Shown piece after piece: positions 2,901 to 29,166 of a DNA stretch of 34,570 bases. The notes beneath the pieces are model-generated. The model had not been told where the DNA came from. It saw nothing but the letters and a program-made list of their open reading frames with translations, and did not search any database. Positions within the stretch are counted from its first letter, which is position 1, and every line of letters begins with the position of its first letter. Source of the stretch: a virus. Taxonomy: Duplodnaviria > Heunggongvirae > Uroviricota > Caudoviricetes. The DNA is taken from the IMG/VR virus record IMGVR_UViG_2554235190_000007; one strand, written 5' to 3'. The position numbers were made by a program, and so were the translations under genes.

Positions 2901-3979
2901 CAGAACGGGTCCTCCTGTACTCTGGCTTTTTTCTTTTTCCGCGCGCCGGGGTCTTCAGGTTCAGGCAGATAAGCATCAGGCGGGCCGACACGGATTTCCG
3001 TCAGGGTACCGTTCTGGTCCTGAGTAAACGTGACTTCCGAAACAAGCAGTTCGGTATTGTCAAAACCACAGACCGGATCAAAGACAATCACCCGCTGGTT
3101 GGGTTGCCACAGCGTACCGTTACCCTGTCGCCAGCCCTGCACCACATAGGTGGTTTCATCCGTCCGCGCCGCCCGTTGCCGGGCTTCAAAGTCAGCACGC
3201 GCAATACAGCCTGCCCCCGTAGCCTGCCCTGTCTGCCTGATATACATCGGACGGTAACGGGCAATAAATGCGTCCTCTGTGCGGGCCCGCAGCGCGGTGG
3301 TGGTGGCCTCACCGAAATCATCGTCGTTTCCGGCACGCTGCCCCGCCACCTGGTAAACAGAAAACCGCTCCCGGATACTCTTCTCCGTATCGCAGGAAAG
3401 GATGTTTTCCCCAAGTACCAGCGCGGTATGTGCCCGCGTTGAGCCAATACCACCAATCACCAGCCTGCCGTGCGGGTCGTCGTAAGCCAGCGCCTGCTGC
3501 TGACCGAGTATTTTGTTGATCACCTCAATCACCGTTTCACCGTGATCAGGCTGGACATCAGGAATAACACCCGACGGCGCACCGCTGTTCACCACCTCAA
3601 TGCCGAAAGGCGCAGCAAGCGCCTGCGCAATCTGTACCAGCGATCGTCCGTTAAACTGTGTCGGTTCGGCTGCACAGTCAATCAGGTCAGCGGTCAGACT
3701 ACGTCCGGCAATACCGGTGCTGACCGAACGGGCATCGTAACGAACGGGCGTCGCCTCCACCCAGCCGGTGATCACCAGCTCATCACCAATCAGCACCTCC
3801 ACTTTTGAACCATTTTTAATGCGCGGCTGAAGCGTGGTAATACCCTCATCTCCCGGCCACTGGCGGGTGATCTCCACACTGAAATCCCGCGCCAGTCGTT
3901 CAACACCGGCACCGATGCGCACCGATGTCCAGCCATTCCACTCCCGGCCATTTACCCGTAGCGTGACGTTATCGTTCAT
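2900..3979 (-). CDS. baseplate hub / late control D-like tail protein (Mu gp44-like)
   Basis: 359 aa, N-terminus MNDNVTLRVNGREWNGWTSVRI typical of P2 gpD / Mu P proteins; lies between the DNA circulation and spike genes. Confidence 0.7.
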   Translation of the reverse strand: MNDNVTLRVNGREWNGWTSVRIGAGVERLARDFSVEITRQWPGDEGITTLQPRIKNGSKVEVLIGDELVITGWVEATPVRYDARSVSTGIAGRSLTADLIDCAAEPTQFNGRSLVQIAQALAAPFGIEVVNSGAPSGVIPDVQPDHGETVIEVINKILGQQQALAYDDPHGRLVIGGIGSTRAHTALVLGENILSCDTEKSIRERFSVYQVAGQRAGNDDDFGEATTTALRARTEDAFIARYRPMYIRQTGQATGAGCIARADFEARQRAARTDETTYVVQGWRQGNGTLWQPNQRVIVFDPVCGFDNTELLVSEVTFTQDQNGTLTEIRVGPPDAYLPEPEDPGARKKKKARVQEDPF

Positions 3980-26178: not shown

Positions 26179-26517
26179 CTATTTCCCTGAATTTACGACG
26201 AAACTGTTCGAGCGGGCTGAAGCACTCATGCTCATAGTCTTCGCGGAGGTAGATAACCCGTTGTGTTTCCGGCTCCCAACGAATGACTCTGACGGGTACT
26301 CCGTAGTGATCTTTGAACCAGCGGTTAACTTGTCGCAAAGGACTGTCTCCTTCTGCCGGTTGAAATCACCCACAGCCCACTCTGCAAAGCTGTGGGTTAC
26401 AATTTCCCTGTCACCTGGTACATTCACTGCATAGCAATATTCCACCTTCGCTTTTCCACCCGGTACAGGAAGCGCAATCAGTTGCGAGCGACGGTAGTGT
26501 GTTGTTAAACTGTTCAT
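26179..26517 (-). CDS. hypothetical protein (112 aa) between CII-like and replication genes
   Basis: ATG overlapping the upstream stop (ATGA) and ending 10 nt before the replication gene start, with GAGG upstream of that start; strand and coupling support a real gene. No family recognised. Confidence 0.4.
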
Positions 26518-27083
26518 GCGTTAGTTTCTCCACAACCAGAAGCAATCGACGCCACGACGCCCGGAGCTGCACACTCGCGGGCGTCATTACTTTCTGAAAT
26601 GCAAAAAATTTTGTAGACAAGTGCTGCATGCTCCTGCAGCTTCGAAATTGAGAGATACAGCTCGTCGTTAATTGCTGTCTTCTCATGCGGTTCCACTACA
26701 CCGTCTTCGATTGCTGAACGAATCTGTTTTGAATAACTGCCGATCTGTTCAATGACTTCCAGCAGACGCTGGTTAATATCGGCGTTGTCCACATCCTCGA
26801 CGTCAGGAAGAGACACAAAGACGCCATTTGCAGACTGCGCCACAGCATCAGCAATGAAGTGAGTGCCACCAGCACGCTGTAAAACCATTGCCCATCCCAG
26901 CGGGAAAATCTGATCGCCATCTGCACGAAGGCGGTTGAATAAAGCGTTTTCTGTTACATCGAGCCAGTCAGCCGCTTCAGCGTAACCACCCGGCAACGCC
27001 GCGATAGTTTTTCTGACAGCTTTCACGTACCACTCAGGCTGTTTTTCTATTTTCCAGTGATGCTTACCCACGATTAGCCTCAT
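26514..27083 (-). CDS. CII-like regulatory protein (CP76 / YdaT-type)
   Basis: 189 aa immediately downstream of cro on the same strand, the position of cII in lambdoid phages; size and sequence are compatible with the large CII-type family, but the assignment is from memory. Confidence 0.45.
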
Positions 27084-27114: not shown

Positions 27115-27315
27115 CTAATCTTTCGGATAGATATCCGGTCTTAAGTCAGATTTCGTAATTGCACCTGACGTGCATTGCTCAAGTTTTTTAGCCAGCACAA
27201 AACTGGCTTTTTTATAGCCATTGAAAACCAGCCGTAAGTAGCCAGGTGTTGAGCCAACTTTTCCGGCCAACTCGCCCTGCTGTTCTTTGGTTAAAGAGTC
27301 CCAATACGCTTTCAT
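27115..27315 (-). CDS. cro: Cro-like repressor (YdaS-type HTH)
   Basis: 66 aa, MKAYWDSLTKEQQGELAGKVGSTPGYLRLVFNGYKKASFVLAKKLEQCTSGAITKSDLRPDIYPKD; HTH and C-terminal DLRPDIYP match YdaS/Cro-like proteins. Divergent from cI with GGAGG 10 nt upstream. The track ORF 27115..27618 is a 5'-extended version that overlaps cI. Confidence 0.7.
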   Translation of the reverse strand: MKAYWDSLTKEQQGELAGKVGSTPGYLRLVFNGYKKASFVLAKKLEQCTSGAITKSDLRPDIYPKD

Positions 27316-27320
27316 ACAAT

Positions 27321-27389
27321 ATGTACCTCCGATGTACATATTACATGATTGAAATGAACCTTCAAGATACTTGTACCTTAACGGTACAA
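27321..27389. promoter_or_regulatory. right operator region: two 19-bp palindromic operators with divergent cro and cI promoters
   Basis: ATGTACC-TCCGA-TGTACAT (about 27321..27339) and TTGTACC-TTAAC-GGTACAA (about 27371..27389), sharing TGTACC half-sites. Candidate cro promoter on the minus strand TTGAAG-16-TAATAT; candidate cI promoter on the plus strand TTGTAC-17-TTTAAT placing the start at or next to the cI ATG (leaderless). Confidence 0.5.
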
Positions 27390-27405
27390 GGGTTTTAATT
27401 TCGTT

Positions 27406-28080
27406 ATGAAAACAATCCATGACATCCGGCGGTCTAACGCCAGAAAACTGAGAGATGGTGTTGGCGGGAATTCTTCCTTTGCCACTATGATTGATCGCGA
27501 GCCAACCCAGACCAGCAGGTTTATGGGAGATGGTGCTACTAAAAATATCGGTGACAGCATGGCACGACACATCGAAAAATGTTTCGACCTGCCTGTCGGA
27601 TGGCTCGATCAAGAACACCAGACAACGAACATCACAAAAAAACCTGATGTTTCAATCACTAATAAACAAATCACATTAGTCCCTGTCATATCATGGGTAC
27701 AGGCCGGAGCATGGAAAGAAGTTGGATATTCTGAGGTTGATTTGAGCACAGCAGAAACGTATCCCTGCCCTGTCCCCTGTGGGGAAATGACTTATATCTT
27801 GCGGGTGATAGGTGATTCAATGATTGATGAGTACCGCCCGGGAGACATGATTTTTGTCGATCCTGAAGTACCTGCCTGCCACGGTGACGACGTTATTGCA
27901 TTGATGCACGATACAGGTGAAACCACCTTCAAAAGGTTGATAGAAGATGGGACACAGCGTTATCTCAAAGCGTTAAACCCAAACTGGCCTGAGCCTTACA
28001 TTAAGATCAACGGTAATTGCTCTATAATTGGTACAGTGATTTTCTCAGGAAAACCAAGAAGATACAAAATCAAAGCCTAA
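27406..28080 (+). CDS. cI: CI-type prophage repressor (HTH plus S24 LexA-like peptidase domain)
   Basis: 224 aa; N-terminal HTH, Ala-Gly autocleavage site (WVQAGAWKE), Ser/Lys dyad context (VIGDSM ... TTFKRL); divergent from cro across the operator region; ATG start with no Shine-Dalgarno. Confidence 0.85.
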   Translation: MKTIHDIRRSNARKLRDGVGGNSSFATMIDREPTQTSRFMGDGATKNIGDSMARHIEKCFDLPVGWLDQEHQTTNITKKPDVSITNKQITLVPVISWVQAGAWKEVGYSEVDLSTAETYPCPVPCGEMTYILRVIGDSMIDEYRPGDMIFVDPEVPACHGDDVIALMHDTGETTFKRLIEDGTQRYLKALNPNWPEPYIKINGNCSIIGTVIFSGKPRRYKIKA

Positions 28081-28092
28081 TCAATGTTTATG

Positions 28093-28115
28093 AACCTGCT
28101 TCGGCAGGTTTTTTT
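28093..28115 (+). terminator. rho-independent terminator after cI
   Basis: AACCTGC-(4 nt)-GCAGGTT followed by TTTTT, starting 13 nt after the cI stop. Confidence 0.5.
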
Positions 28116-28119
28116 ATAC

Positions 28120-28152
28120 TTGACAATGTACCTTTGAGATACATAATGTACC
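28120..28152 (+). promoter_or_regulatory. pL-like promoter overlapped by repressor operator half-sites
   Basis: TTGACA - 16 nt - CATAAT on the plus strand, with ATGTACC repeated between -35 and -10 and again over the start region (ATGTACCTTTGAGATACAT resembles the right-operator sites). Confidence 0.45.
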
Positions 28153-28569
28153 CAAGAGAAACAACAAACAGGCAGGACGTCCACGAAGTAGCCGCCTGGG
28201 GCATATGAAGTCCAAGATGATTCGTTAGCAACAAAACGCCCATAGGACGCTTCGCTCTTTAACAATTTGAATATTTTCAGCGTCAATGATCTGTTTAGCT
28301 CCCTACAAGTAAATGTAGCGTAGCACCATGATAAATCCTGCTAGTGTTTAGTTAAAAATCGCGCGAGAGCAAGAACGACGTGAGGGCAGGCAATATTGAT
28401 AGTGTTATTGCTATTAGTTTATCAAAAATATTTAGACGACCCAGATGAATATTTTTAATACATACTCCCCCTAATTTAACAGGAGTAAATGTTGATGAAT
28501 AACGAGACATCTATACTCAACAATTGTATGATATGAACAATTATATAACATAATGTAGGAAAAATAAAA

Positions 28570-29166
28570 ATGGATTGGCATGACCTTATATCAAAGGTAA
28601 TTATCGGACTTGTTACAGGCTCAATCGCAGCTTACTTAACTGCGCGATATGCACTCGGCCGTTATTATAAAGAAAAATGGTGGGACAAAAGAATAGATTT
28701 GTATACGCAATTAGTTGACTGTGTTTATCTTCTAAAAAACACAGCTGACTATTGGTATAAACATGAGTTACATCACGCTTCACAATTCCCAACCTACTTT
28801 AGTTACAAATCAAAAGAAGAAAATGAAATCCTTAGCAAATCTTTCTCTAATGAGCTTGAAAAACTCAGTAGAATAGGTGAGCTATCTTCATTATTCTTAA
28901 CAGAAGAGTGTGGGGATAAAATCCGTTCATTCATTGAAAATGAAGAAAATCTATTTATACAATGGGAGTTTGATAGTATAGAGTTGATAGATGCCCACAA
29001 GTCAAGACTTGATAAATTAAAAGTATTACTAGACGATATTATCTCTGAAGCAAAGAGAGAGCTTAAGGTCAATAAAAAACATAACAGCCTAAAGAATATA
29101 AAGTGGTCCATAACTATGCCAGACCAAAAAAATGATGAGCCAATTAATTATTACGACAATCATTAA
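28570..29166 (+). CDS. hypothetical membrane-anchored protein (198 aa), AT-rich cassette downstream of cI
   Basis: ATG with AGGA upstream; one N-terminal TM helix (ISKVIIGLVTGSIAAYLTARYAL), W/Y-rich juxtamembrane segment (YYKEKWWDKRIDLY...DYWYKHELHH) and K/E-rich helical C-terminal domain; very AT-rich; clean terminator follows. No family recognised. Confidence 0.65.
   Translation: MDWHDLISKVIIGLVTGSIAAYLTARYALGRYYKEKWWDKRIDLYTQLVDCVYLLKNTADYWYKHELHHASQFPTYFSYKSKEENEILSKSFSNELEKLSRIGELSSLFLTEECGDKIRSFIENEENLFIQWEFDSIELIDAHKSRLDKLKVLLDDIISEAKRELKVNKKHNSLKNIKWSITMPDQKNDEPINYYDNH

Follow-up and report, generated by a model that had tools for sequence, protein, structure and literature searches.

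The 34,570-nt stretch of viral DNA filed as IMGVR_UViG_2554235190_000007 (Caudoviricetes; the whole stretch is called the window below) carries a repressor gene, cI (plus strand), and a cro gene (minus strand) that diverge from a common short control region, and it raises the question of which operators and promoters this region holds and how a cI mRNA that appears to begin at its own start codon is made and translated. An earlier examination of the letters without database searches (hereafter the sequence-only reading) had proposed a compact immunity switch with TGTACC-type operators and an apparently leaderless cI. Following up this proposal, we conclude that the locus is most probably, at roughly 85%, a lambda-like CI/Cro immunity switch of an SfV-like prophage, that it represents the same module as ymfK-ymfT of the Escherichia coli K-12 element e14, and that it uses five operators and a leaderless cI mRNA started at the promoter PRM.

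The region is the immunity switch of the e14/SfV group, with a repressor and a Cro that are identical or nearly identical to YmfK and YmfT and with the same operator and promoter DNA. On the protein level, cI agrees with YmfK (CohE) of K-12 e14 at 224 of 224 residues (100%) and Cro agrees with YmfT (CroE) at 65 of 66 (98%). Across 130 bp around the control region we found a single base difference from K-12, at position 27332 in the spacer of the operator OR1 (Table 1); positions 27333-27425 are identical, as is the region downstream of cI that contains the promoter PL and the operators OL1 and OL2. The terminator that follows cI is likewise the same in both. The two differ in what surrounds the module, since e14 is a 15-kb defective remnant whereas the window, the remainder of which is an SfV-like myovirus prophage, is apparently complete and differs from e14 in its replication genes and, beyond ~28230, in its PL operon.

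Close copies are widespread. The DNA over cro-cI-PL is 95.5-99.4% identical to that of SfV, SfIV, the cdtI phage, twelve Stx2c-converting phages, Ayreon, 2H10 and PhiR29, and about a quarter of the complete E. coli genomes (1324 of 5426) carry the module, with its genes named ymfK and ymfT. Through the Stx2c-converting, cdtI, SfV and SfIV phages it is also present in viruses of medical relevance. In the SfV record, a 'putative operator region' is annotated that corresponds to 27321-27389 of the window, and the terminator after cI is marked as well. SfV and the window differ at six positions in 130 bp, among them the spacer of OR3 (CTATC in SfV, TTAAC in the window) and one substitution in the right half of OR1, while the promoter hexamers, the half-sites of OR2 and OR3 and the spacing to the cI ATG are invariant. 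As in the comparison with e14, the genes downstream of PL in the SfV group differ from those of the window.

Putative operators on PR, PRM and PL

The cro start codon (CAT on the plus strand, 27313-27315) and the cI ATG at 27406 enclose a gap of 90 bp (27316-27405), exactly the length given by the sequence-only reading. We searched the whole 34.5-kb window with the 17-mer TGTACC-N5-GGTACA, the core of a putative 19-bp operator consensus, ATGTACC-N5-GGTACAT. With up to two mismatches the motif occurs at exactly four places, namely OR1, OR3, OL1 and OL2, and nowhere else. With up to one mismatch it occurs three times against 0.04 expected, a count reached by none of 300 dinucleotide-preserving shuffles. 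All three copies of the heptamer ATGTACC in the window fall within these dyads, and a repeat finder, unprompted, built a four-member family of OR1, OR2 (as 27353-27371), OL1 and OL2. Two 19-bp palindromes with TGTACC half-sites had been described in the gap before. Both are there, although OR1 is imperfect, but the count of two was wrong, as the putative site OR2 had been missed. Related ATGTACC copies had also been noticed on a strong promoter downstream of cI, and these correspond to OL1 and OL2 on PL; the GGAGG of cro lies inside the operator spacer, as had been said, in that of OR1.

Table 1. Features of the cro-cI-PL region and their positions in the window
Feature	Sequence	Position	Strand	Remarks
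cII-like gene (ymfL homologue)		26514-27083	-	open reading frame (ORF) from ATG at 27083
cro (YmfT/CroE homologue, 66 aa)		27115-27315	-	YdaS-type helix-turn-helix; phrog_35, transcriptional repressor
OR1 (putative)	ATGTACC-TCCGA-TGTACAT	27321-27339	both	1 mismatch to the symmetric 17-mer; over predicted PR start and cro leader
Shine-Dalgarno sequence of cro	GGAGG (CCTCC on plus strand)	27326-27330	-	inside OR1 spacer
PR (predicted)	-35 TTGAAG (27365-27360), 16 bp, -10 TAATAT (27343-27338)	27338-27365	-	8/12 matches; read from sequence
OR2 (putative, weak)	ATGAACC-TTCAA-GATACTT	27354-27372	both	3 mismatches; covers PR -35; centre -43 from cI start
OR3 (putative)	TTGTACC-TTAAC-GGTACAA	27371-27389	both	perfect dyad, 0 mismatches; centre -26 from cI start; left half is PRM -35
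PRM	-35 TTGTAC (27371-27376), 17 bp, -10 TTTAAT (27394-27399), 6 nt, start at A of ATG (27406)	27371-27406	+	K-12 transcription start and identical sequence
cI (YmfK/CohE, 224 aa)		27406-28080	+	Rep-type N-terminal DNA-binding domain and S24 autocleavage domain
Intrinsic terminator after cI	8-bp stem and T run	28092-28118	+	annotated in SfV and Ayreon; kept in relatives
PL	TTGACA-16-CATAAT	28120-28147	+	11/12 matches; best promoter-like site in the region
OL1 (putative)	ATGTACCTTTGAGATACAT = ATGTACC-TTTGA-GATACAT	28126-28144	both	1 mismatch; fills PL spacer between hexamers
OL2 (putative)	ATGTACCCAAGAGAAACAA = ATGTACC-CAAGA-GAAACAA	28146-28164	both	2 mismatches; past PL hexamers, over PL start (predicted near 28154)

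Relatives for the comparison beyond E. coli came from two sources. With the N-terminal domain of cI as query, tblastn retrieved phages of Hafnia (74.5% identity), Pseudomonas (~59%) and Vibrio (55%), and a scan of one genome per species added 20 more loci, from Atlantibacter, Leclercia, Pantoea, Enterobacter, Pseudocitrobacter, Klebsiella, Trabulsiella, Kluyvera, Proteus, Rosenbergiella, Pseudomonas and others. With the cI ATG as the fixed point, 25 distinct upstream sequences could be aligned almost without insertions or deletions. The centres of OR1, OR2 and OR3 at -76, -43 and -26 and the position of OL1 between the PL hexamers are kept from E. coli to Pseudomonas and Vibrio. More precisely, OR1 is centred at -76/-77 in all relatives, and OR3, whose arms extend to 8+5+8 once the flanking C/G pair is counted, stands at -26/-27 with no or one mismatch in all 25. 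The CCTCC within OR1 is retained in nearly all of them, including those of Pseudomonas and Vibrio, and reads CCCCC in one Rosenbergiella copy; at the other end of the region, the terminator, TTGACA, OL1 and CATAAT are conserved. In most relatives OL1, at ~+729 from the cI ATG, forms a perfect dyad; PL, which is annotated as a promoter in the record of phage Ayreon, is kept in about 20. TAATAT and the TTG of the -35 of PR are kept in the enteric relatives, and so is, among the relatives, the Cro N-terminus MK[AE]YWDSL. Substitutions among close relatives lie mostly in the operator spacers. The least certain of the five sites is OL2, the left half of which is kept in most relatives, while the right half is kept in some and absent in others.

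The relatives are mosaic phages, and both the C-terminal domains of their repressors and the flanking genes vary, whereas the dyads track the N-terminal domain of cI. Because these other parts differ, we conclude that the dyads travel with the N-terminal domain, as expected of its operators.

OR2 deserves separate consideration. Most relatives have ATGAACC-N5-GGTACTT (two mismatches) at the same position, abutting OR3, and those of Pseudomonas have TGTACC-GTCAA-GGTTCT. Since neither of its half-sites falls within the PR -35 hexamer (TTGAAG, minus strand, 27365-27360), since its position is fixed across genera and since the imperfection is itself conserved, we regard OR2 as a real, though putatively weak, site. 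That the deviation (A for T in TGAACC) is conserved suggests that a weak OR2 has been selected for and is not a product of drift. Judged from these sequences, the gap would thus hold three partly symmetric sites that overlap PR and PRM.

Two further matches came up in these scans. A motif-like copy, CTGTACCCTGTGGGGAAAT, lies inside cI at 27771-27787 (plus strand, ~+373) with three mismatches in the window and two in K-12 (L003, 6553) and SfV (L001, 3172); although it recurs, we judged it to be a chance match and not an operator. The OR3 dyad together with the GGTTTTAATT behind it (27370-27399, plus strand) was scored as terminator-like by the terminator scan, which is probably a by-product of a dyad followed by the T-rich -10 region. 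In any transcript that enters toward cI from upstream, a hairpin of OR3 would sit 16 nt before the AUG.

The leaderless cI mRNA

The sequence-only reading had assigned cI a weak promoter (TTGTAC/TTTAAT) with its start at the ATG and no Shine-Dalgarno (SD) sequence, and this assignment agrees with data obtained in K-12. By differential RNA-seq, the ymfK transcription start site (TSS) was mapped to RVS_(I)-1202156, which equals the gene start, giving a leader of 0 nt and a class I start (Romero 2014, PMC4681348, Table S3). Over 27333-27425 the window does not differ from K-12, in which this TSS was mapped, so a leaderless cI was correctly inferred, and the result has already been published. In the same study, ymfK, racR (Rac) and dicA (Qin) are three of just five mRNAs in E. 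coli whose leaders measure less than 10 nt, all prophage repressors, and dicA has a leader of 3 nt (PMC4681348). The racR and dicA mRNAs thus resemble that of ymfK in being leaderless or near-leaderless, while their repressors and operators are unrelated. No TSS was found for ymfT or the PL side in the supplement of that paper (PMC4681348).

The relatives show the same coupling of promoter and start codon. A -10-like hexamer of the form xxTAAT or xxAAAT at -12 to -7, followed by six freely varying nucleotides and the ATG, is present in 23 of the 25, and the other two have it displaced by 1 nt; all 25 begin cI with ATG. We found no SD sequence before cI when testing for pairing with the anti-SD sequence in the window and the 25 relatives: within the 20 nt upstream of cI the best duplex in the window reaches -4.3 kcal/mol, and the mean over the relatives is -2.3, compared with -11.3 for cro. 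Entropy by codon position is 0.60/0.61/1.39 over cI codons 2-27 and flat over the 60 nt upstream. As this pattern of codon-position variation begins at the ATG at 27406, coding begins there, and between the upstream in-frame stop and this ATG the window contains no alternative in-frame start.

In Hafnia phage yong2 (L004, 2501-3175), the record annotates cI from the internal Met40 (position 2618 of the locus), 117 nt after the conserved start. The conserved N-terminus, operators and -10 place the true start these 117 nt earlier, and the annotated start probably reflects a gene caller misled by the lack of a ribosome-binding site. The operator and promoter map may therefore serve to correct misplaced cI starts of this kind.

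Proposed working of the switch and competing readings

The cI protein has the parts expected of a self-cleaving repressor. Its Peptidase_S24 domain (PF00717) is recognized with E 1.5e-26, lambda cI has a homologous C-terminal domain (E 1.9e-9), and the translation contains the Ala100-Gly101 cleavage site together with Ser138 and Lys176. The N-terminal domain matches no Pfam family, even at E values up to 10, and so does not fall into the HTH_3 (XRE) family of lambda and 434; its profile matches Rep of the Salmonella phage SPC32H (PDB 5d50) with E 6.1e-8 over residues 1-72, and it probably still adopts a helix-turn-helix fold. The likeness to SPC32H Rep is confined to this domain, the S24 C-terminal domain giving no significant match, and the residues of the recognition helix differ, so that a different operator is expected. 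An antirepressor, and not self-cleavage, inactivates SPC32H Rep.

According to the reading that we favour, a dimer of the CI-type repressor would bind the 19-bp dyads, three between cro and cI and two on PL. With OR1, which covers the PR start (predicted near 27331) and the ribosome-binding site of cro, and OR2, on the PR -35, both filled, cro, the cII-like ymfL, ymfM and replication would be turned off; filling of OL1 and OL2 would do the same to PL. The weak PRM (TTGTAC-17-TTTAAT) would start on the A of the cI ATG and supply the lysogenic cI mRNA without leader or SD sequence. OR2 at -43 is placed so that it might activate PRM, and OR3 at -26, on the -35 and the spacer, so that it might repress it; by analogy, the logic of PRM is likely to be lambda-like, with activation at moderate and self-limitation at high repressor levels, and Cro would use the same sites to switch PRM off. 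Upon DNA damage, RecA-stimulated self-cleavage of CI at Ala100-Gly101 (S24) would be predicted to open PR and PL together.

Transcription from PRM of lambda begins with the A of the cI AUG; cI activates this promoter from OR2, situated near -42/-43, and OR3 overlaps PRM, in a cI-cro gap of ~100 bp. The window shares with lambda the divergent cI and cro genes, three OR dyads, an OL cluster on PL and a homologous S24 C-terminal domain. Having three OR sites as lambda does, within a gap of about the same length, the switch is not exceptionally compact, contrary to the sequence-only reading. The differences from lambda lie in the operator sequences, in the spacing of the OR sites (33 and 17 bp versus 24 and 23), in an OR1 that sits on the PR start and the cro SD sequence instead of the -10 and -35, in two OL sites where lambda has three, in the location of the best dyad on PRM, and in a Rep-like N-terminal domain of cI, a CII of the 186/CP76 type and the lack of N. 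These departures leave room for, rather than demonstrate, a somewhat different regulatory logic.

A number of observations weigh against the lambda-like reading. The cI TSS is known from K-12 and not from the present strain, and we found no binding data for YmfK or YmfT in the literature searched, which did not cover Allison 2002 (SfV genome), Mehta 2004 (e14) and Roberts 2007. PR scores below the cut-off of the promoter scan, hence it was not listed there, and its start rests on prediction, not on mapping. The usual second-position A is absent from the PRM -10 in most relatives, the right half of OL2 is poor, and OR2 is weak. As the centres of OR2 and OR3, which share a base pair, are 17 bp apart, unlike the 23-24 bp of lambda, neither simultaneous occupancy nor lambda-style cooperativity is assured, and the location of OR3, the best dyad, on PRM itself would favour plain negative autoregulation over activation. 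Several of these features, namely the base pair shared by OR2 and OR3, the sole perfect dyad on the PRM -35 and the PRM -10 without its second-position A, together with the Rep-type domain, are compatible with a family that does without lambda logic and in which OR2 (activating) and OR3 (repressing) would form a mutually exclusive toggle, complemented by an antitermination or RNA-immunity element in the PL leader; we consider this arrangement rather unlikely. Less likely again is a switch with only two operators, in which just the two good dyads of the gap are bound and the likeness of 27354-27372 to an operator is a by-product of the PR -35 and OR3. With three mismatches OR2 is, taken by itself, at chance level (13 such sites in the window versus 9.85 expected), its spacer TTCAA is the PR -35, and it overlaps OR3 by 2 bp. 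Against this stand the half-sites ATGAAC and GGTACT, which lie outside the -35 and are nevertheless fixed in position in enterics, the form TGTACC...GGTTCT in Pseudomonas, the mere two mismatches in most relatives, the grouping of OR2 with OR1, OL1 and OL2 by the repeat finder, and the conservation of the deviation itself.

The other alternatives concern the source of the cI protein and the ligand of the dyads. It is conceivable, though highly improbable, that cI is made mainly from a leadered, CII-dependent transcript from upstream or from the internal Met28 or Met40, and that the mapped 5' end is a minor one. The CII-like YmfL is encoded next door, which makes an establishment promoter reading through OR plausible, and the annotators of yong2 chose Met40. 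However, the 5' end mapped to the A of the ATG was classed as a primary start (class I) in K-12 in a lysogen-like state, residues 1-39 are conserved as protein with the variation in third positions, so that translation has to start at the first ATG, no alternative in-frame start is available, and a leadered transcript would lack an SD sequence as well; we also saw no convincing CII-dependent establishment promoter toward cI in the cro-ymfL region, only the conserved AACCACAG. Even less credible is the view that the GTAC dyads are not repressor operators and serve only Cro or a host factor, or that LexA acts directly at weak boxes. Apart from the lack of a binding experiment in the literature searched, it draws on the finding that most e14 genes rise ~36-fold upon DNA damage and that nearly all of them are induced in dependence on LexA cleavage, an induction that the authors attribute to weak LexA boxes and not to repressor cleavage, which also counts against our own reading (PNAS 2024, PMC11228462). 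However, the dyads go together with the N-terminal domain of cI in mosaic phages and are placed exactly on PR, PRM and PL, whereas LexA-box-like sites are absent from OR and OL and in the window as a whole are at chance level (10 observed versus 7.9 expected). A CI repressor that is cleaved with RecA should, as in lambda, likewise bring about an indirect dependence on LexA cleavage. Loss of one S24 repressor at PR and PL would offer a simpler, indirect account of the SOS induction of the whole of e14.

Part of the lambda-like reading was already known, as the leaderless repressor mRNA had been mapped in e14 (PMC4681348) and the operator region flagged in the SfV record; the sequence-only reading had not identified the locus as this known immunity region. 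What the present comparison would add, going by sequence, is a putative third OR site, a five-site consensus and the cross-genus conservation of promoter-to-AUG coupling. These results leave the current understanding of phage switches unchanged; the operator consensus and promoter map may be of use in typing prophages by immunity group and in predicting homoimmunity.

The PL leader and neighbouring genes

Just after OL2, a PL leader of ~75 nt (28165-28225, plus strand) is conserved in E. coli, SfV, Atlantibacter, Leclercia, Enterobacter, Pseudocitrobacter and Kluyvera. RNAalifold predicts a hairpin (28195-28199/28212-28216) with compensatory changes at three of its five pairs, which is enclosed by an invariant CGAA/UUCG pairing (28184-28187/28221-28224). 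In the window this hairpin has one C-A mismatch, and the fold of the single sequence is no better than that of shuffles (z = 0.31). Rfam gave no matches in the whole window at gathering thresholds, and a permissive scan of 28050-28650 gave only chance-level ones; because these scans were empty or at chance level, we assign no known RNA family, including the C4/P4-type immunity RNAs, at or after PL. Antisense pairing of the P4 kind was rejected too, since the complement of the hairpin loop is not repeated downstream and matches no more often than by chance. Neither N nor cIII is present in SfV-type phages (PMC3851460), and in such N-less phages the leader may serve factor-independent antitermination or RNA immunity. 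It may also be the RNA immunity already reported for SfV, which, going by the account in a citing paper (PMC3475682), was described by Roberts 2007.

Farther along the PL transcript, GCTCTTTAACAA stands at 28254-28265 (plus strand) with a small GC hairpin before it, a sequence that we take to fit the consensus of the rrn-type boxA. It recurs in two relative loci (L011 and L026) and is absent from K-12 e14 and SfV, both of which diverge just before it.

On the other side of the switch, the next gene after cro encodes a CII-like activator, the homologue of YmfL, of the phage 186 CP76 family (Phage_CP76, 1.3e-13; phrog_101, 7e-71). Its true start is probably not the ATG at 27083 but the GTG at 27071, which gives 185 aa as in the K-12 ymfL annotation; the GTG and the GAGG/AAGGGG ahead of it are kept in relatives. 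Upstream of the ymfL start, the sequence AACCACAG mentioned above lies at 27095-27088 on the minus strand and is likewise kept in relatives. Downstream of the cII-like gene, a 112-aa ORF is identical at 109 of 112 residues (97%) to the division inhibitor YmfM.

Beyond PL, an AT-rich stretch contains a 198-aa ORF (28570-29166, plus strand) that stands in the place of SfV and e14 genes. It has no Pfam domain, its sole match is phrog_17948 (unknown function, E 6e-95), and it may be an accessory ('moron') gene. In the PL transcript of Hafnia phage yong2 (L004, ~3370-3445), the stretch GTGGTGTAGCTCAGTTGGTAGAGC...GGTTCAAGTCCAGCCACCAC looks like a tRNA gene and is a candidate for one by its appearance.

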